From the IMG/VR virus record IMGVR_UViG_3300001765_000035, positions 1 to 16,011 of that record: a stretch of DNA of 16,011 nt; one strand, 5' to 3'. The DNA comes from a virus (taxonomy: Duplodnaviria; Heunggongvirae; Uroviricota; Caudoviricetes). A program made the position numbers and the translations under genes. Shown one piece after another: positions 6,582 to 16,011 of this stretch (its first letter is position 1; each line of letters starts with the position of its first letter). The notes beneath the pieces were generated by a model that was not told where the DNA came from, did no database searches, and saw only the letters and a program-made list of their open reading frames with translations.

Positions 6582-9500
6582 ATGGCAAGTAACCCTTATT
6601 TAGCAATCGCAGAAGCAGAACTTAACGATAGGCTAAATGGGCCTACTTTACTTCCAGAACCTACATCATTAACATCAGATAAAACTTCATTATTAGCAAA
6701 TAGAAAAGAAGAGAAAGTAAGTCGTCTTGGTAAGTTAGCTCAAGGAGCTGATCTACAGAATAATACCTATTCAGAAATAGGTAACGGACTTTTAGAAAGT
6801 AATGCCAACAAAGTGTGGAATGACTTAAGTGGTGCACAACTACAAGATGCTTTTAGTGATGCTGCTGATAAATCATTACGTCAAGATCCAGTTACAGGTA
6901 AAGTATACTCTAACGTTACAGGTGAAGAATTCACCGGAGATACTAGACGTATGTACATGTACGGAACAAAAGATGATCCTAATGTAGTTAAAGTAGGATT
7001 GGCTAGAGGAGATTTACCTAGCTCTGATTATAGGTATACTCCAGGACAAGCTGAAGCTGAAGGTTATAACACAGGTAAAAACGGTTATGGGTGGGATGCT
7101 GGTGAGAATGGTGTAGACTTAAAAAAGAACTATATGGATATGCTACTTCCATACGAAACTGCTACTGCTTTAGAAGGTATGGTACATGGTAATAAAACAG
7201 CACTAGAAAATAGACAATTTCCTGATGTTATGGCTCCTGAAGCATTAGCTCATGCAAGTGGTGTTAGTGAATACTATAATGATGTATCAGGTATACTTGG
7301 TGATACTAGAGGTATGACACCAGAAGAACTTACTCAAGCTGAGAATAATATACTTGCTGAGAAAGAACTACTTCCGGGAGCAGAAAGCTGGAGTTCAAAG
7401 CATGGACAAAGTGGTGGATCATCATTTGCTGACTTTAAACCAGATCCTGGTATGCAACTACCAGAAGCAATGGCTAGTGGATACGCTAACCTATCTTCAC
7501 GAGGAGCAGAACTTGTAGGTAGTTTAGTAGAACTAGCTGGAGAAGGTGTTGAAAAATTAGATGAATGGCAGAACGGTTATAACAAAGAGAACCCTGCTTC
7601 TGAAGAAAGTAATGTATCTGAAAGTGCATTAAAAAGTATTGGTAGTTTCTTAAAAGAAGAAGGCGCACAGATACAGACTGAACAACAAGACTGGAGAGAA
7701 AAAGGTAAGTATGATGAACTTGTAGGTTATGACACATCTTCTGTACAAGGTTTTGGTAAAGAGCTTGCAGACATGGTAGAAAAAGGTGATTACCTAGAAG
7801 CTGTAGGTCACATGTTCGATACACGTTCAATAACAGCATTTACTCAGTCTTTACCTGAAATGGTTGTAATGGCTAACCCATTCGGTCTAGGTGGAGTTGT
7901 ATCTGCTAACATAGCAAGTAACCTAAACGAACTAGAAGATAGTGCCGCTAAAGCAGGTATTGAATTATCAGATGAAGACAAGATGACATCTGCCGCACTA
8001 AGCACTGTAGGTACATTACTTGATAGATTTGGTGATAAGGTTACATTAGGATCCGCTAAAGGTTTGTCTACTATGATGAAAGGTATGCCTGAAGGTGTAC
8101 AGAATAAAGTAATAGGAATGTTCGGAGATCGTTTAACTGCAGTAGGTGTAGAGATTGCTTCAATAGCCCCTAAAGCGGCAGTAGAAGGTATTACAGAAAC
8201 AGCACAGACTGTATTAGAGAATAAAGCAACTGATGCTAGTAAGATGAATACTGAACTTACAGATAAAGAACAACGAGAAGCATTAGAAGCTGGTATGATT
8301 GGTATGGCTGCAGGTGGTGTTCCATCAGCTGCTACAGCTACAAAAGCTGCTATAAGTAACTTTACAGGAATGTCAGTAGAACAGCTTAAAGCTGAAATGG
8401 ATCGTAGAAAACAAACTAGAAATAGTACACGCCCTCAAGTAGGTACAGATATTCCTGCAGTAGCTCCTACAATGGATGATATTGCAAATATAGATGTAGA
8501 GATCGGTAATGATGGTATAGAAGGTACACTAGCAAGTGTTATGGAACTACAAAACAGAGTAGAGGATTTTGAAGATTCAGACGAATTATCCCCGGAAGTT
8601 AAAGCAGAGTACGCTAAACGTAAAGAGACATTAACATTAGCATTTGATGATATGTCAAACGATGAGCCTATTAAATTCGGTAGTACTGCTGATGCAGAAA
8701 GTTTCTTACTTACTGTACTAAAAGGTAAAACATTAGATGATGTTATTGAACCTAAATTAGAAAGCTTTGCAAAAATTAATAATATATCTTCTGAAAGTCT
8801 TACTAAGATTAAAAACTTAATTACTGTAGAACAAGAAGCTATCGGTGGTAAACGTGGAGCAGCAAGTTATTTAGCAGAAGCTAAAGTCTATATGAAAGAT
8901 CCTGAAAAGAATTCTAAAAAGATTCAAAAACTAGGTACCCGTATGGGTAGTTTCTACGATAAAGAAGTAGAGTATAAATCTGCAGTAGACAGCGTTATTG
9001 ATGAATTAGGGACAATACTTAAGACTAGAGAAGCAGGTGTAAAAGCTACACAGACAAGTATTAAGCGTATTCTTCCTATAAGTAACAATCGTAAAAAAGA
9101 ACATAAGATAGAATTTAAAGTAAATAGTCTTGAAGATATACAACAAAGTCTAGTTAACGCTAAAAAAATATCAGATGCTACAGGTAGAGTATTAACAAAC
9201 CTTGAAGACGGTATGGTTACAATCGGTAAAGAAACTACTAAAGCTAATGTTACTCTTGATGGATTTGATGGAGGTATCACAGTACCGGCTGCAACAAAAC
9301 CTAAGAATCAAAAGTTTAGAGATAATGATCAAAAACTGTATAGCGAACATGATGTGAGTAAAGTTATACTTGATACTAACCACGGATATAAGTGGAATGA
9401 GTATAAAAAAGTAGCAAGTAATAGTAAGCTTGTAAATACTAAAAAATATACTTCTGAAGATGTAGTAGTTGTAAACAGTTCTACTCCTGCAAAAAGCAGA

Positions 9501-12500
9501 AATATAAAAGGTTATGTACACAAGTTAGATAAAGCAACTATAAATGAAATAGTAAAAGCTAAAAAAGCTGGAGCAACTATAGTAATGGATAGTCAATTAG
9601 ATAACAAAGCAAAGGTAGCAATAAGAACTGCTATAACTATTGGACATACTTACTCAGCAGCAGATGCTGATAGTAAAGTGTATAAACCAAAAGAAAAAGC
9701 TATAGTAGAGAAAGCTGAAATAGATGCTGTAAAAGCTAAAGCAGCAGATAAAGCAAAAGCTAAATCAAAAGCTAATGGTAATTTAACACTAAGTATAGCA
9801 GCATTAATAAACGACATATCTGAAATAGATGATATAAGTACAAAAGCTAAAAAAGATACTTCCTTTAAAGAAGCAGCTACTAATGCTAAAGAGTATTATA
9901 GTGCAACAGATACAGAAGATGTACGTCAAGATAAGATGATAAAAGCTTCTACAAGTGCTATAAAAAAGCAAGTACAAGAACTTAGCAATGGCTATAGAAA
10001 AGCTATGGTAGACAATGATTCAGAACTAACAAGTATGGATATAGCCGATGTAAATAAGAAATGGCTTGTAGGCAAAGATTACTCAACAGTAGCAAAGAAG
10101 ATCGAAGAACTTGCTGTTAAAAAAGCTACAGACGATATTAGTAATGTTAATGCTAAAGTAAATATGCTTAGTAAATGGAAAGGTATTCTAGCTACAGCTA
10201 AAGATAAAGGCGGTATATCTGAAACAGATGCTATAAACGCATTGCTTACAAGTAAAGAATATGGACATATTACAGAAGCTAAAAAGGTTGTTGAGAACAT
10301 ACTTAAAAAGACAGGTATAAGTCTTAAAAGATATAGAGATAGTATTACAGATAAGAAAATAGGTATGACTTTAACACTAGACATAAATGAGATAGTTGAA
10401 CTTAAAGGTACGCCTACAGTGTTTAATACACTACCTGTAGATAATATGGGATCTAAGCTTTATGAAATATTCAATAATGCTAAAAAAGTATTTACAGCTC
10501 CTAACGTAGATGTAGTACAAGGTAATACTAAAAAAGATCCTTCTATTAAGACTAAAGAAGAACATAAAAAAGCCGGAGGTTTTGCTACCTTATTTGATTA
10601 TTCATTGTATAACGATCCTGCTAGAATGTTACTTATGGAAGAAGTTAACGATAAGACAGTACTTAATGATAACGTAGTTGCAGCAATGACAACTGCTGTA
10701 ATAGAACAGATAGCGATCAACGGTAGAATGATCTCAGATAAGTATAAGACTAAAGAAGACGTAGCTAGAATGCACGGAATAGAAGCTTACTCTATAGGTA
10801 ATAGAGAAGCTATTGATCTTGGTAAACATGGTATGTTAAAGAAAACTTTAGCTGATGATATGGGAAAAGCTATAGCTAAACACTTAGGTATTAAGCGTAA
10901 AGCAAATAGTGAAGTAGCAGATACAGAACAGTATGATAGATTAATAGCTGACTTAGGACAGTATGCTATACTACTTGGTGTAGATATGAAAGTATTCGAT
11001 ATGGATGAAATGTCTGTAGAAGAATATATGCATCTACTAGGTAGGGATGGTGCATTAGATGACAGTGCAGAGAATATAACTGGAACTACTGTAGGTTTTG
11101 TAAAGATTCCTGGTGATATCTATGATGATGTTATAGAAGAATACAAAGAATCATTTGAAGTATTGAAAGAACAATTACCTGATGTATCTACTATACGAAG
11201 AGAACCTTCAGATGTAGAGATAGGAAAAGGTACTAAAGAAGCACGTAAGAATACTATATCAAAAGATATATCTGGGTTTAAGCCTGCAGAAGAAGCTAAG
11301 ACAACATTAGAAAATCTAATGAATCAAGAGTATAGTGTAAACTTTGAATTAGTAAATCAGGTACTTGATAATCAGGATGATATCAAAGCTTTACTTGGTT
11401 GGATTGATATGGAAAATACGGATGCTCTAGAAGCATTATCATACGAAAGCAGAGAAATACAACCTGCAATCAATATGGATATAGAAAGATCTATAGAAGA
11501 ATTATCGTTACTAAAAGATAAGTATACTGATAATGAAGATGTAGGTTTATTCTTTGAATGGTTCTATACTAAGAACGGTCGTTATATGATGGATAGTAAT
11601 ACAATTAATCCTCAGACAGACAAACAGCTACATAGATTTATAGTAACACCTAAAGAGCATAAAGTAATGTATGGTGTTAGCTATAAAGAAGATGTACCTC
11701 AGTTTACAGTTACGGATTGGGTAGGACAGTCTAACACAGAACTAAAAGCTAAAGCTGATGTAGATCCTAAAGTAGTTCAACAAAATATGTATTACGCACT
11801 AGCACAAGGTTTAGGTATTGCTACAGATAAAAAAGAGAGTAGCAAATTCTATACACAAATGCAAAGATTGCTTGAAGGTACTGCGAATAGTAAATTAGAG
11901 ATAATCTATGAAGGTCCTAAAGATATACAGATTATAGAAGATGCTAAAATAGCTGACATACGTAATATATTTATGAAGAAAGGTGAATTACGTATTAACG
12001 TTAAAGATAACACTAATCCTGATAACTACATAAAGATTGAAGTAGAACATTTTACACATGCGCTACAAGCGTTTAGTATACTAGAGAAGATTGAAAATAA
12101 TGATACAAGCATAACTAGCTCAATTACAGCAGAGTTCGATGCGGTAACTTCAGGTTTCGCTATTAAGTTAGCACAGATGCCGGTTATAGGAAGAACGTTA
12201 AGATACGCACTTAAAGTAGGTATAATACCAAAAGTATTGATAAATGCTGATGATGCTAAAATGAGTGCGATGTTTAACGGGTTTACCGGTGGAGAATCAT
12301 GGGCTGACTTTAAGAAAGACCATAAAGAACTATTGGACTATTTAGATACAAAACCTAAAGTAAGTATGAATGATATCCTTGATGGTAAGATCAGAGATTC
12401 ATACCAGACAGCAGCAGAACAAATGGTAGATATAGATTCAAAACTAATAGAGAGTTCATTAAGCAGTAAAGAACTACAGCAAGCTTATCCTGATTTTGTA

Positions 12501-13922
12501 AACTATGCAGGTGTTTTAGCTGATATGCGTAAAGGACATGGTACTGAGGGTAAAAGTACATGGGATATACTTTATGGAATGTTGCCTAAGCATATAGCCG
12601 GAACTGCTGTTAAGTCTGATTTGCGTACATTGTTTAAGAATCCTTTCATGATCTTTAACTATAGTGCTTCTATTAAGAGTATTAGAATATCACTAGCGAA
12701 TAAACTAGCTACAGATATATTAGAGAAAGTTTTAGCTAATAAAGAGAAAACTGTTATTGAAGAATTATTTAAAAGTTTAAATATGAATATTGGTACAGGT
12801 AAACTACAGGTAGACGGTAAGAAGATTACTACTGTAGATGAATTACGTAAAGCAATTCAAGAAGTACCTGCAGATAGAATAATGTTAGGTAATAGTAAAA
12901 AACATAACCTACATACATTGCTGAGTACTCTTATAAATGCTTCATATGGTAGTAAGTTAGAAACAGTATTAACTAAAGAGTTTAAACCATTCTTAGATAT
13001 ACAAGCTGTAATTAACAACTCCTTTAAAGGTATGTTTGAAGTATTCAACATAGAGTATACAAAAGCTTTAGAGGACAAAAGAGCAGCTAACGATGGTATA
13101 TTAACAGTACAAGGTAAATTAGAAGTATTAATGGCTATGCAAGATGCATTCCCGGCAATTAAGGGACCATTCACTAAAGATGATATGAAAGCGTTAATAC
13201 CTATATATAAAACCAAATCAGGTACACCCGACAAAAGTGTAGGTGCTAAGACGTGGTTATCAAAAGGATGGGCTAAAAAGAACCTTGGTGAAAGTCAAGA
13301 GACATTAAACATCTGGCATAAGATTAAAGAGTTTGATGCAGCTATAAGTGCTGGTTCAGTTGTACCAATACACTTTATAGATGGTGCATTAATGGGTAGA
13401 ACATTAAATCATATGACTAGTGAATATAAAAGTGCTATGACAACATCAATCCATGATGCGGTTATGCCTCCATTGCTATTAGCAAATGAGGTTACAAGAC
13501 AGTACAATAAAGAATTTATAGATATGTCAGATGAGTATAGTGTTATAGATGAAATAGTAGCTGGATTAGAACGTGTATTAAAAAACAAGTCTAATGACGA
13601 AGCTTATAACGCAACTAATAGTTATAACGTAAATGGTAAGTGGGAAACACTTTCTGTATCAGACTTTGTAAAGCAAGCATTAAAAGATGCTAAAGCTCAA
13701 CAAAAAAAGATTATCAAAGGTAGAAAACAGTTTAAAGAAGTATTGGATGAAGACGGTGCCTACGTAATGCACATGGCAGGTATGTCTGAAGGTGTATTTG
13801 AACATCCAGGAAAGCCTAAGTTGAAAAGTAGTAAACTACAGGAACAGGTTGACAAGGGTAATATACCATTTGAAGCAGCAAAAGAATTTGAAGATAGCAT
13901 AGGGAAGTGTAATGGCTTGTAA
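6582..13922 (+). CDS. vRNAP: virion-encapsidated single-subunit DNA-dependent RNA polymerase, N4 gp50-like (N-terminal region plus polymerase domain, 2446 aa)
   Basis: T7/N4 RNAP motifs in order: TKNGRY-MMDSNTINPQTDK (DxxGR equivalent, R1667, nt 11568-11624), motif A EFDAVTSG (D1853, 12132-12155), motif B RTLFKNPFMIFNY (R2015, K2019, Y2027; 12624-12662), PIHFIDG (13365-13385), motif C IHDA (D2292, 13449-13460). The motif B to C distance of 273 aa is N4-like rather than T7-like. A ~1240-aa N-terminal extension precedes the polymerase. Confidence 0.93.
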   Translation: MASNPYLAIAEAELNDRLNGPTLLPEPTSLTSDKTSLLANRKEEKVSRLGKLAQGADLQNNTYSEIGNGLLESNANKVWNDLSGAQLQDAFSDAADKSLRQDPVTGKVYSNVTGEEFTGDTRRMYMYGTKDDPNVVKVGLARGDLPSSDYRYTPGQAEAEGYNTGKNGYGWDAGENGVDLKKNYMDMLLPYETATALEGMVHGNKTALENRQFPDVMAPEALAHASGVSEYYNDVSGILGDTRGMTPEELTQAENNILAEKELLPGAESWSSKHGQSGGSSFADFKPDPGMQLPEAMASGYANLSSRGAELVGSLVELAGEGVEKLDEWQNGYNKENPASEESNVSESALKSIGSFLKEEGAQIQTEQQDWREKGKYDELVGYDTSSVQGFGKELADMVEKGDYLEAVGHMFDTRSITAFTQSLPEMVVMANPFGLGGVVSANIASNLNELEDSAAKAGIELSDEDKMTSAALSTVGTLLDRFGDKVTLGSAKGLSTMMKGMPEGVQNKVIGMFGDRLTAVGVEIASIAPKAAVEGITETAQTVLENKATDASKMNTELTDKEQREALEAGMIGMAAGGVPSAATATKAAISNFTGMSVEQLKAEMDRRKQTRNSTRPQVGTDIPAVAPTMDDIANIDVEIGNDGIEGTLASVMELQNRVEDFEDSDELSPEVKAEYAKRKETLTLAFDDMSNDEPIKFGSTADAESFLLTVLKGKTLDDVIEPKLESFAKINNISSESLTKIKNLITVEQEAIGGKRGAASYLAEAKVYMKDPEKNSKKIQKLGTRMGSFYDKEVEYKSAVDSVIDELGTILKTREAGVKATQTSIKRILPISNNRKKEHKIEFKVNSLEDIQQSLVNAKKISDATGRVLTNLEDGMVTIGKETTKANVTLDGFDGGITVPAATKPKNQKFRDNDQKLYSEHDVSKVILDTNHGYKWNEYKKVASNSKLVNTKKYTSEDVVVVNSSTPAKSRNIKGYVHKLDKATINEIVKAKKAGATIVMDSQLDNKAKVAIRTAITIGHTYSAADADSKVYKPKEKAIVEKAEIDAVKAKAADKAKAKSKANGNLTLSIAALINDISEIDDISTKAKKDTSFKEAATNAKEYYSATDTEDVRQDKMIKASTSAIKKQVQELSNGYRKAMVDNDSELTSMDIADVNKKWLVGKDYSTVAKKIEELAVKKATDDISNVNAKVNMLSKWKGILATAKDKGGISETDAINALLTSKEYGHITEAKKVVENILKKTGISLKRYRDSITDKKIGMTLTLDINEIVELKGTPTVFNTLPVDNMGSKLYEIFNNAKKVFTAPNVDVVQGNTKKDPSIKTKEEHKKAGGFATLFDYSLYNDPARMLLMEEVNDKTVLNDNVVAAMTTAVIEQIAINGRMISDKYKTKEDVARMHGIEAYSIGNREAIDLGKHGMLKKTLADDMGKAIAKHLGIKRKANSEVADTEQYDRLIADLGQYAILLGVDMKVFDMDEMSVEEYMHLLGRDGALDDSAENITGTTVGFVKIPGDIYDDVIEEYKESFEVLKEQLPDVSTIRREPSDVEIGKGTKEARKNTISKDISGFKPAEEAKTTLENLMNQEYSVNFELVNQVLDNQDDIKALLGWIDMENTDALEALSYESREIQPAINMDIERSIEELSLLKDKYTDNEDVGLFFEWFYTKNGRYMMDSNTINPQTDKQLHRFIVTPKEHKVMYGVSYKEDVPQFTVTDWVGQSNTELKAKADVDPKVVQQNMYYALAQGLGIATDKKESSKFYTQMQRLLEGTANSKLEIIYEGPKDIQIIEDAKIADIRNIFMKKGELRINVKDNTNPDNYIKIEVEHFTHALQAFSILEKIENNDTSITSSITAEFDAVTSGFAIKLAQMPVIGRTLRYALKVGIIPKVLINADDAKMSAMFNGFTGGESWADFKKDHKELLDYLDTKPKVSMNDILDGKIRDSYQTAAEQMVDIDSKLIESSLSSKELQQAYPDFVNYAGVLADMRKGHGTEGKSTWDILYGMLPKHIAGTAVKSDLRTLFKNPFMIFNYSASIKSIRISLANKLATDILEKVLANKEKTVIEELFKSLNMNIGTGKLQVDGKKITTVDELRKAIQEVPADRIMLGNSKKHNLHTLLSTLINASYGSKLETVLTKEFKPFLDIQAVINNSFKGMFEVFNIEYTKALEDKRAANDGILTVQGKLEVLMAMQDAFPAIKGPFTKDDMKALIPIYKTKSGTPDKSVGAKTWLSKGWAKKNLGESQETLNIWHKIKEFDAAISAGSVVPIHFIDGALMGRTLNHMTSEYKSAMTTSIHDAVMPPLLLANEVTRQYNKEFIDMSDEYSVIDEIVAGLERVLKNKSNDEAYNATNSYNVNGKWETLSVSDFVKQALKDAKAQQKKIIKGRKQFKEVLDEDGAYVMHMAGMSEGVFEHPGKPKLKSSKLQEQVDKGNIPFEAAKEFEDSIGKCNGL

Positions 13923-16011
13923 TAAAAATGAAATACTAAAAAATGTACGTGATAAACATAACTTAACTATGGCTCAGATTAAACTACTAGAATCACTTAT
14001 GAAAGATGTAGTTGAAGACTTACGCTTAGGAGACGAAGCAGTAAAATCTTCTTCAAAAGATGATGTATATGAATACATTGTAGATTCTTATGAAAGTACT
14101 AAAAAAGATTTTATTGCAGAACTAAATAAAGAGAAGCCTAAGATACAGAATACTAAAAGTGAATCTACAGGATATGTAGTTCCTATTACTATAGAAAGAA
14201 TAGTAGGTCGTACAGCTTATTACACATATAAAGATGCTAATAAAGTATATCAGATACCGGCTAATTCTAAATTCATTAAATTAGATAATGTAGATTTAGA
14301 TACACGTATCAGAGAGTTTGCTCATGTAGCAGCTACTTATGGTAATACACAAGGTGCTAATAAAGCATGGAATAGCTTTGAAGATATCGAAAAGAACATA
14401 CACAAAGATCCTGAAAGAATGGTAGCTCTACTTGAAGAGTTACATGAAGCAGATGGTAAAAAAGAATCTGATGAACACATGAGTCAATTACGAACATTGT
14501 TTAGCACATTAAGATCTGATTTCTTCACAAAGATGGACGTATATGTAAGTAAAGATGTAGAAGGACGTGGTGGTATAGCGAGTAATACGAAGATAGGTGT
14601 ATACTTTTCAAATGTAGCTAAGCAAGCAAATAATGAAATGGGTGCTGCAGAAATATATGCACATGAAATCGTACACGCAATAACACAGTTTTCATTAGAA
14701 TCTGCCTCTATAAACAGAGAAGCTGCTAAGCTAGTTAAAGAACTTGATTACTTGATGGAATCTGTAATGGATCGTTTAACTTGGAAAGAGCTTATGCCTA
14801 AAGAAAGCATAGACGCAGTTCGTGAAGAACGTATAGCTAAAGAGTTGTATCAGTATATATTTACCAATAAAGAAGCAAGAGCAGAATTTATAGCCCATGC
14901 ATTGACAAACCCTATACTATCAGAAAAACTAAAGCTGATGAACCTAAAGCCTAAGCATGAAACTAAGAATATCTTAGAAGTACTTGTAGATTGGTTTACC
15001 TCTTTAGTAGATTTAATAATGGGTAACTATGAGTTTAACGATAGTAAGAAGACAGCTTATGAACAAGCTATGAAGTTGACAATGGCTTTAGCAGAAATCA
15101 ATAACAATAAGTTAAATGAGGTAAAGCAAAAGAACATTGTAAATACAATAACAGATGGTATTCAAAGCGGTAATGAAATGATAGGCGAAGCTATAGATAA
15201 AGTAATCAATAAATTCAAAGATGAAAATATTACGATTGCAAATCTACCAGCAAACGCAACACTGGCTGAACGTATACCATGGACAGCTAAAGCCTTATGG
15301 GTAATAATGAATAACAAAGAGTATAGAAACTACTTTGGTCATGTTATGTCTGCCTGGGGTGTAACCCCTGAAGGTATGTTAAGAGACTGGGGAAGAGCAT
15401 TCATGGAAACTAATGAAATGCAGAAAGCAGTAGAATGGTTAGGTACAACTTCAGATAAGATTGACCAAGCTAGAAACAGAGTAATACTTGAAGCTAAAAA
15501 ATTAGTATTAGATGGATTTGGGGAAACTAAACTATCAGAAACTGAAGAAGAAGCTTTAACAGCAATACTTGTAGATACAGATATACAAAGTATATTTTTT
15601 GATAAACAATATACCAATAAGAAAATACGTAGTATGTTAGAAGATGATGCTGAGCTAGAAAAACAGCTTAACTGGGCTAAGAGTAGATTAGAAGATATGG
15701 ATAGTGTACATAGACATTGGCATATTAACCAAGCACATGTACTAGGTGTATATATGGCTACAGGTGAGATAAGTACAGGAATGAACTTTAACTCATGGAA
15801 CATAGCTAGAGGATTACAGTCATCAGAAATTAAAAAAGTAAAAGGTAATCGTGGAAGATTACTAATGAAAGAAATAGATACAGTTGCCACACTAACAGCC
15901 TTGAAATACTCAAACAAAGAACAGAAGAAGCAAGTTGCAGAGTTAATGAGGGTAGAGTGGGGTAGACGTGGAGTAAAGAATTTAGTACATATCCATAAAG
16001 GATTTATAGAT
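13912..16011 (+). CDS. vRNAP C-terminal-domain-like protein with zincin metallopeptidase motif (partial, at least 700 aa, runs off window; absent from the supplied ORF track)
   Basis: ATG 13912 (MACNKNEILKNVRDKH...) with SD AGGGA at 13901-13905, 11-nt overlap with the vRNAP stop. I translated frame 1 to base 16011 with no stop. Contains YAHEIVHAIT (HExxH at 14662-14676) and EFIAHALTNP (14884-14913); downstream blocks such as NQAHVLGVYMATG and IDTVATLTALKY resemble what I recall of N4-like vRNAP C-terminal regions. Confidence 0.85.
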   Translation, partial: MACNKNEILKNVRDKHNLTMAQIKLLESLMKDVVEDLRLGDEAVKSSSKDDVYEYIVDSYESTKKDFIAELNKEKPKIQNTKSESTGYVVPITIERIVGRTAYYTYKDANKVYQIPANSKFIKLDNVDLDTRIREFAHVAATYGNTQGANKAWNSFEDIEKNIHKDPERMVALLEELHEADGKKESDEHMSQLRTLFSTLRSDFFTKMDVYVSKDVEGRGGIASNTKIGVYFSNVAKQANNEMGAAEIYAHEIVHAITQFSLESASINREAAKLVKELDYLMESVMDRLTWKELMPKESIDAVREERIAKELYQYIFTNKEARAEFIAHALTNPILSEKLKLMNLKPKHETKNILEVLVDWFTSLVDLIMGNYEFNDSKKTAYEQAMKLTMALAEINNNKLNEVKQKNIVNTITDGIQSGNEMIGEAIDKVINKFKDENITIANLPANATLAERIPWTAKALWVIMNNKEYRNYFGHVMSAWGVTPEGMLRDWGRAFMETNEMQKAVEWLGTTSDKIDQARNRVILEAKKLVLDGFGETKLSETEEEALTAILVDTDIQSIFFDKQYTNKKIRSMLEDDAELEKQLNWAKSRLEDMDSVHRHWHINQAHVLGVYMATGEISTGMNFNSWNIARGLQSSEIKKVKGNRGRLLMKEIDTVATLTALKYSNKEQKKQVAELMRVEWGRRGVKNLVHIHKGFID

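Follow-up and report, generated by a model that had tools for sequence, protein, structure and literature searches.

The window, a 16,011-nucleotide (nt) stretch from the start of the Caudoviricetes virus record IMGVR_UViG_3300001765_000035, carries on its plus strand an open reading frame (ORF) at 6582-13922, which encodes 2446 amino acids (aa) and has an AGGA ribosome-binding site about 10 nt before its ATG. The product was recognized as a virion RNA polymerase (vRNAP) by a match to phrog_2206 in PHROGs (E 1.9e-52, aa 359-2425), by PF21867 precomputed on a database protein identical to it, and by 32% identity over 1050 aa to the vRNAP of the Alteromonas phage AD45. Both the ORF map and the AD45 paper (PMC3821669) are consistent with a vRNAP split into two genes, and by its sequence the 2446-aa product is the N-terminal polypeptide of a naturally split N4-type enzyme. 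Its first 358 residues gave no PHROG match and are covered by no Pfam model. We describe here a conserved module in this region (aa 30-260), in which a GIY-YIG nuclease of the T5orf172/MUG113 kind had been proposed from the sequence alone in a preliminary description.

A HMMER search with aa 30-260 against 1.84 billion representative sequences led to 147 clusters at E <= 1e-3, 110 of them at E <= 1e-10 (clusters at 50% identity), in which the module lies N-terminally on large vRNAP-like proteins. Including word-index matches, 178 homologues were collected, 118 of them at least 2000 aa long and 172 with the module starting within the first 100 residues; a Pfam scan of the N-terminal extensions of the six proteins with an internal module gave nothing. 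Alignment of 145 homologous N-terminal modules (alignment A1, mean column identity 21%) left only five invariant columns, namely Y125, K137, G139, R151 and E198. Near-invariant were E230 (144 of the 145 homologues), G177 and G227 (143 each), Y152, G174 and R211 (141 each) and H202 (140), followed by A194 and Y231 (133 each) and Y232 (131). The plus-strand segment 6945-7277, corresponding to aa 122-232, translates as quoted in the preliminary description from RRMYMYGTKDDPNVVKVGLAR to SGVSEYY, and the two residues singled out there as candidates for catalysis and metal binding, an arginine at 7032 (R151, codon 7032-7034) and E198 (codon 7173-7175), are both among the invariant ones (145/145). 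In fact, all five invariant columns coincide with motif positions that had been named before any alignment was available; for five invariant columns scattered by chance over 231 positions, about 12 of them named, a rough estimate puts the odds of this near 1e-6.

Structure prediction by AlphaFold2 (AF2) with A1 as input gave one compact domain for aa 30-260, with a predicted local distance difference test score (pLDDT) of 96.2 and a predicted template modelling score of 0.90; prediction on the single sequence of aa 1-420 was unusable (pLDDT 37). In the model, DSSP assigned strands to residues 92-100, 107-113 and 149-161 and helices to 119-123 and 162-174 (model numbering; +29 for protein numbering). 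The core (aa 115-260) is predicted to run through beta1 (RRMYMYGT), beta2 (VKVGLAR), a short alpha1 (SDYRY), an inserted loop, a long beta3, a helix (ATALEGMVH) and short elements to SEYY, and this beta-beta-alpha-beta-alpha order is that of GIY-YIG domains. Comparison of the model with AFDB clusters led to 30 rows, 17 of which are named T5orf172, MUG113 or GIY-YIG (best E 2.3e-2, probability up to 0.97) and cover model residues ~86-231. Among 48,161 PDB representatives the top three were Slx1 (6seh, 7cq2) and Arabidopsis HIGLE (7wme), which share the beta-beta-alpha-beta-alpha core and aligned over 88-98 residues in the same part of the model (86-231). I-TevI and the UvrC N-terminal domain are also structurally solved GIY-YIG nucleases. 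Matches in BFVD included T5orf172, CapR-homology and GIY-YIG phage proteins, and the first row from the ESM Atlas was a MUG113/T5orf172 cluster (111 aa aligned, root-mean-square deviation 4.1, template modelling (TM) score 0.49), with two more T5orf172 rows besides. The argument from the predicted fold is one of convergence: four libraries of different structures rank the same small superfamily first, for the same part of the model. Foldseek against the PDB returned only NudC and 2'-5' ligase rows at TM scores of ~0.1, to be regarded as noise, and the same noise against Swiss-Prot, together with a single UPF0213 (GIY-YIG) row (probability 0.25); PDB sequences searched by phmmer and by profile yielded nothing beyond ribosomal-protein noise. 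A MafB toxin and the P22 gp7 'DNA transfer protein', returned by an ESM Atlas feature search at 0.78-0.79, scored below the level of shuffled sequences and were not used.

The best predicted-structure matches come from the T5orf172/MUG113 branch (PF10544, PF13455), which is found in phages and includes T5 ORF172, ICP1 Odn gp88 and the ICP1 homing endonucleases, and this branch has the same set of residues in the same order as the module. Shared are the tyrosine in beta1, K-x-G in beta2, the arginine in alpha1, Glu..His after beta3 and a G-S-x-E-aromatic-aromatic end. The relatives of T5 ORF172 have invariant Y78, K90, G92, R100, E128 and E142, with a Tyr-to-Lys spacing of 12 as in the module, and the module end GSGxSEYY is closely similar to GSTEFF of the T5orf172 proteins of AD45 and T5. 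When hhalign was run in relaxed mode with two T5orf172 subfamilies, Y, KxG, R, E..H and SE[YF][YF] came into register, which placed Y125, R151 and E198 opposite the invariant Y78, R100 and E128. T5orf172 is an accepted GIY-YIG member and a proven nuclease, since ICP1 Odn cleaves DNA both in vitro and in vivo at its target, the E180A variant being inactive (PMC8263062); E198 would be the candidate metal-binding glutamate and counterpart of Odn E180. The module differs from T5orf172 by an Arg-to-Glu spacing of 47 residues instead of 28, reflecting a 25-residue insertion after the arginine, by a longer spacer before the last motif, and by an additional N-terminal subdomain of 85 residues, whereas the partners of T5orf172 are Bro-N, KilA-N or a zinc-ribbon. 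This subdomain, for which no relative could be recognized, is possibly a specificity or DNA-binding part. Finally, the module is fused to a virion-packaged RNA polymerase, whereas T5orf172 is encoded by a free-standing gene. AD45-P1 also has such a free-standing canonical T5orf172 (L005:1465-1854, minus strand, 129 aa, PF10544 E 3.6e-13), so that the AD45 group holds both the canonical form and the divergent vRNAP-borne module; in the genome of the window no canonical copy was found.

A number of results weigh against this kinship, most of them from the sequence level. The fold-match scores themselves are weak. Pfam gave no match at E <= 10 for the whole vRNAP, for aa 100-260 or for aa 1-420, none of the 145 homologues matched the T5orf172, MUG113 or GIY-YIG models at E <= 1, and a six-frame search of the 80-kb genome with PF10544, PF13455 and PF01541 was empty at E <= 10; as a control, the PF10544 search recovered the true T5orf172 genes of T5 and AD45-P1. 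Profile-profile comparison was no more successful: hhalign of A1 against narrow T5orf172 alignments (one of T5 ORF172 relatives, one of the AD45 gene and a second T5 gene) reached probabilities of 0.6-2.2% (pairwise E 0.02-0.1) and aligned only a block of 23-27 residues around beta1-beta2, global mode or removal of the insertion did not raise the probability, and cross-searches with hidden Markov models, filters off, scored the same as shuffled controls. In addition, only the first tyrosine of the proposed Y-x-Y motif, Y125, is invariant, and the second, Y127, is variable (Y 80, G 33, F 22 of 145). Because the sequence-level tests fail, we do not assign the module to the Pfam families and consider it a far-diverged branch of the superfamily. 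Of the proposed GIY-YIG identity, the conserved T5orf172-type motif order and, at weak scores, the ranking of the fold matches are supported, and a match to a GIY-YIG, T5orf172 or MUG113 profile is not. Taken together, aa 115-260 probably belong to the GIY-YIG superfamily as a far-diverged member, with the T5orf172/MUG113 branch as the nearest. The features of the locus are collected in Table 1.

Table 1. Features of the vRNAP locus in the 16,011-nt window.
Feature	Position	Strand	Basis or remark
vRNAP N-terminal polypeptide, 2446 aa, naturally split, N4-type	6582..13922	+	phrog_2206, PF21867
Conserved N-terminal module, aa 30-260, one compact globular unit	6669..7361	+	AF2 pLDDT 96.2, pTM 0.90; homologue alignment
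N-terminal subdomain of the module, aa 30-114: helix, two beta-hairpins, helix	6669..6923	+	Motif ESNxNKIWN (N76 133/145)
GIY-YIG/T5orf172-like core, aa 115-260	6924..7361	+	Aligned by all T5orf172, Slx1 and HIGLE fold matches (model residues ~86-231)
Strand beta1 RRMYMYGT with invariant Y125 (codon 6954-6956), putative counterpart of the 'GIY' tyrosine	6945..6968	+	
K137-V-G139 in strand beta2, K and G invariant; putative counterpart of T5orf172 'KIG' ('YIG' motif)	6990..6998	+	
R151 (invariant, candidate catalytic Arg) and Y152 (141/145) in short helix alpha1	7032..7037	+	
Family-specific insertion, aa 153-177, conserved YGW..G..G loop	7038..7112	+	G174 141/145, G177 143/145
Helix after strand beta3 with A194, E198 (invariant) and H202 (140/145)	7161..7187	+	
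G227-x-S-E230-Y-Y, matching the T5orf172 'GSTEFF' or 'EWF' end motif	7260..7277	+	
Gly/Ala-rich, weakly hydrophobic helices, aa 427-446 and 510-528	7860..8165 (7860-7919, 8109-8165)	+	Inference; PMC13434306
Second (C-terminal) vRNAP polypeptide, start only; extends past the window end	13912..16011	+	ORF map

We were further interested in which polymerases carry the module. A tblastn search with aa 1-420 against 50,697 phage records matched no phages other than those of the Alteromonas AD45 group (in the gp50-like frame, at 37% identity over aa 34-249), and vB_AmaP_AD45-P1 to P4, which show the same vRNAP split, are the only cultured phages with the module. The A1 profile detected it in AD45-P1 with E 2.3e-67 and in none of N4, LUZ7, Vibrio phage PG11 and Vibrio phage 1.238.A at E <= 1. 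The vRNAPs of these four lack the module, and the polymerase of the window differs from them also in being split into two genes. That such a domain is not known as a feature of the N4 vRNAP, as remarked earlier, is in agreement with the empty N4 search and with the published N4 work (PMC13434306). In AD45, both vRNAP polypeptides are among the virion proteins and the module-bearing one is close to the size predicted for it in full; a description of the N-terminal module is missing from the 2013 paper, whose remarks on GIY-YIG refer to other, free-standing genes (PMC3821669). Among the listed publications that combine virion RNA polymerase with GIY-YIG, none was found to describe the module; besides the AD45 paper they concern, by title and abstract, group II introns.

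The distribution among closer relatives is patchy. When 86 proteins were chosen solely for their resemblance to the polymerase core (aa 1400-2350), 51 had the module and 35 did not, and the four closest polymerase relatives (38-43% identity) all belong to the latter. For 102 proteins with both parts, module and polymerase identity showed practically no rank correlation at depth (Spearman coefficient 0.09), the Pearson coefficient of 0.62 being driven by close pairs. Individual pairs (BLAST) illustrate the discordance in both directions, with 93% module and 24% polymerase identity for P0066/P0067, 30% and 73% for P0005/P0131, and 32% and 60% for P0018/P0232. As module identity is uncoupled from polymerase identity, both parts have separate histories and the module behaves as an exchangeable cassette, so that divergent module alleles are, on the sequence comparison, swapped between vRNAP genes. 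An optional and exchanged module shows a pattern typical of conflict effectors. A recent foreign insertion was considered for the copy in the window and rejected, because the base composition at 6945-7277 is the same as that of the flanks.

With respect to function, the best-known relatives are the vRNAPs of N4 (gp50) and other Schitoviridae, which are giant, packaged and ejected single-subunit polymerases. Ejection of gp50 is described for N4, and in the N4 model the N-terminal domain exits the tail after gp51, ahead of the rest of the polymerase (PMC13434306). Packaging and delivery of the module in the window would follow by homology to AD45 and N4, and by analogy with N4 it would leave the virion N-terminus first on the packaged polymerase. 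Since the module sits on a packaged protein that exits in this orientation, a nuclease present at entry is the likeliest reading. The module may act as a metal-dependent DNA endonuclease or nickase that is present at genome entry before phage gene expression, and would be an optional and exchangeable 'warhead' similar to the effector domains of polyvalent phage proteins. As to its target and the cellular compartment it reaches, both of which we infer, host or competing DNA could be attacked, which might serve host shut-off, counter-defence or the exclusion of plasmids, satellites and rival phages. That a cassette of this kind is delivered by the virion and cuts or nicks host or competitor DNA on entry is suggested but unproven, and we would give it somewhat less than an even chance. 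Catalytic activity as such is a similarly close call, just short of even; in its favour is the invariance of Tyr, Arg and Glu across a family of great depth.

The concept of a giant virion-delivered protein is shared with the polyvalent proteins, whose prototype is the N4-type RNA polymerase; there, MPTase, lysozyme, ART and RNase effector domains are strung together with it (Iyer et al. 2017, PMC5512222). GIY-YIG and T5orf172 are absent from the main text of that paper, according to which ParB-like DNases are neither accompanied nor displaced by other DNase domains (PMC5512222). Some points speak against a nuclease acting at entry. A nuclease without specificity that is produced late in infection would put the phage's own DNA at risk, and protection would be required for the packaged genome as well as for the producer cell. 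Moreover, the N4 model leaves the N-terminal domain in an inner-membrane complex (PMC13434306), and therefore the module might never meet host DNA. The preliminary description had also considered nicking as a help for the extrusion of hairpin promoters, which appears unlikely. N4-type hairpin promoters are thought to need negative supercoiling, and we set this role aside because a nick would relax the supercoiling behind extrusion.

Three other explanations have to be weighed. A domain derived from GIY-YIG/T5orf172 might have kept the fold and lost cutting, serving to bind or hold DNA: it would grip the leading genome end or an early hairpin promoter, and the ejected polymerase would drag the first DNA in, a job analogous to that ascribed to the N4 N-terminal domain. 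In N4, the first stretch of the genome needs this domain in order to enter. Non-cutting relatives do exist, as T5orf172 was first described as DNA-binding and some relatives are domesticated DNA binders, such as the repressor-type CapR of PLE, as far as the accessible parts of these sources go; this counts against a nuclease. A domain that only binds would also spare the phage's own DNA. The position at the head of the ejected chain in the N4 model (PMC13434306) would suit a holding domain. Mere binding, however, would not predict that exactly the catalytic-type Tyr, Arg and Glu are invariant in 145 sequences, and the module is missing from 35 of the 86 related polymerases and from N4 and is therefore no core part of DNA entry; we consider this explanation rather unlikely. 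The same holds for a new fold without GIY-YIG kinship and with a convergent motif, which would have a role in ejection (for example docking to the envelope, the portal or a gp51-like ejection protein) or work on something that is not nucleic acid. It would explain why every sequence-based test fails, other vRNAP relatives have cell-wall hydrolase domains at the same end, and the N4 N-terminal domain binds gp51 and lipid (PMC13434306). It is difficult to reconcile with four independent structure libraries ranking the same superfamily first; with an estimated few dozen GIY-YIG chains among the 48,161 PDB representatives, three of three top ranks by chance are very unlikely, and the five invariant residues and their order also match the T5 ORF172 relatives.

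The module could instead be a selfish homing cassette, an in-frame GIY-YIG domain that cuts module-less or other vRNAP alleles during co-infection and is copied by repair, the phage itself gaining little from its spread among polymerase genes. T5orf172 genes are homing endonucleases at phage recombination boundaries, according to the part of the source available (PMC10448857), and the patchy presence in 51 of 86 relatives, its lack in the four closest ones and the strong discordance between module and polymerase similarity are all compatible with homing. On the other hand, in every case the module forms part of a virion protein, in frame at its N-terminal end, and comes with a conserved leader and an additional subdomain; its base composition is that of the flanks. 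Divergent alleles replace one another, and no alternation of the module with an empty site is seen; the invariance across deep divergence suggests selection for function. Homing in this form is quite improbable. The related proposal of a homing-endonuclease remnant fits the patchy and exchangeable distribution and fails to explain the invariant catalytic-type residues.

Of these readings the virion-delivered nuclease is preferred. The N-terminal regions of vRNAPs are the least understood part of these enzymes. In recent structures the N4 N-terminal domain is unresolved, predicted to be helical and lipid-binding, with no nuclease mentioned, and the 2026 cryo-electron microscopy assigned it membrane binding only (PMC13434306, PMC13492108). 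A large uncultured clade (147 clusters) with one cultured group now has a confidently folded module in this region with invariant residues of the nuclease-active-site type. If it is active, some phages deliver a DNase together with the polymerase, which would be a second DNase type for the polyvalent-protein repertoire and the first of GIY-YIG type among polyvalent or ejected phage proteins. It would then also offer a tractable domain of 230 residues, with Y125F, R151A and E198A as clear mutants, for studying roles of ejected proteins during the opening seconds of infection. An inactive module would still be a new conserved domain family missed by current Pfam and PHROG models, and the cassette exchange is in any case a clean example of domain-level mosaicism within an essential virion protein. 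What the module would represent is a new, divergent form of a familiar type of domain, placed in a new setting, and no new principle. The widest reading is more speculative, and we hold it to be doubtful as a whole: a novel, highly divergent GIY-YIG/T5orf172-type DNase family that occurs solely as the leading vRNAP cassette of AD45-like phages, reaches the cell in advance of the genome, is active before phage expression, and whose alleles are swapped as an arms-race module against host DNA, defence loci and competing mobile elements.

Some further observations concern the polymerase and its relatives. Weakly hydrophobic N-terminal helices occur in the N4-type vRNAPs and likewise here, and the two downstream of the module (aa 427-446 and 510-528) may, by analogy, correspond to the helices that are proposed to span the membrane in the N-terminal domain of the N4 vRNAP. 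The sole cysteine of the 2446-aa polypeptide is aa 2443 (13908-13910), four residues before the C-terminus. Upstream of the polymerase, between 386 and 6504, five ORFs of 292, 615, 132, 706 and 252 aa gave only PHROGs of unknown function or no match; by position they may include gp51/gp52-like ejection proteins.

The N-termini of module-less relatives mostly have no Pfam domain, and peptidoglycan hydrolase domains were found in 2 of the 35 scanned. Hydrolase domains of this kind on related vRNAPs are the VgrG3-like C-terminal domain PF21277 (P0239, P0241, P0136), the phage lysozyme PF00959 (P0253, P0260) and the glucosaminidase PF01832 (P0265, P0267); two of them lie within the first 450 residues of module-less proteins, and P0253 and P0260 have the module and the lysozyme domain on one protein. 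The N-terminal region of these vRNAPs is a mosaic of enzymatic domains. An alignment of the first 450 aa of the 35 module-less relatives (A3) showed a recurring consensus DAD...R...DAxE...LG...T..D, which hints at one or more other conserved and as yet unnamed N-terminal domains. In two metagenomic contigs the module is encoded as a separate short ORF (L092:122-970, P0084, 282 aa; L093:2383-3390, P0145, 335 aa), followed by the downstream ORF after a gap of 33 nt in one contig and with an overlap of 77 nt in the other, which reflects either a further natural vRNAP split or a frameshift or assembly error.

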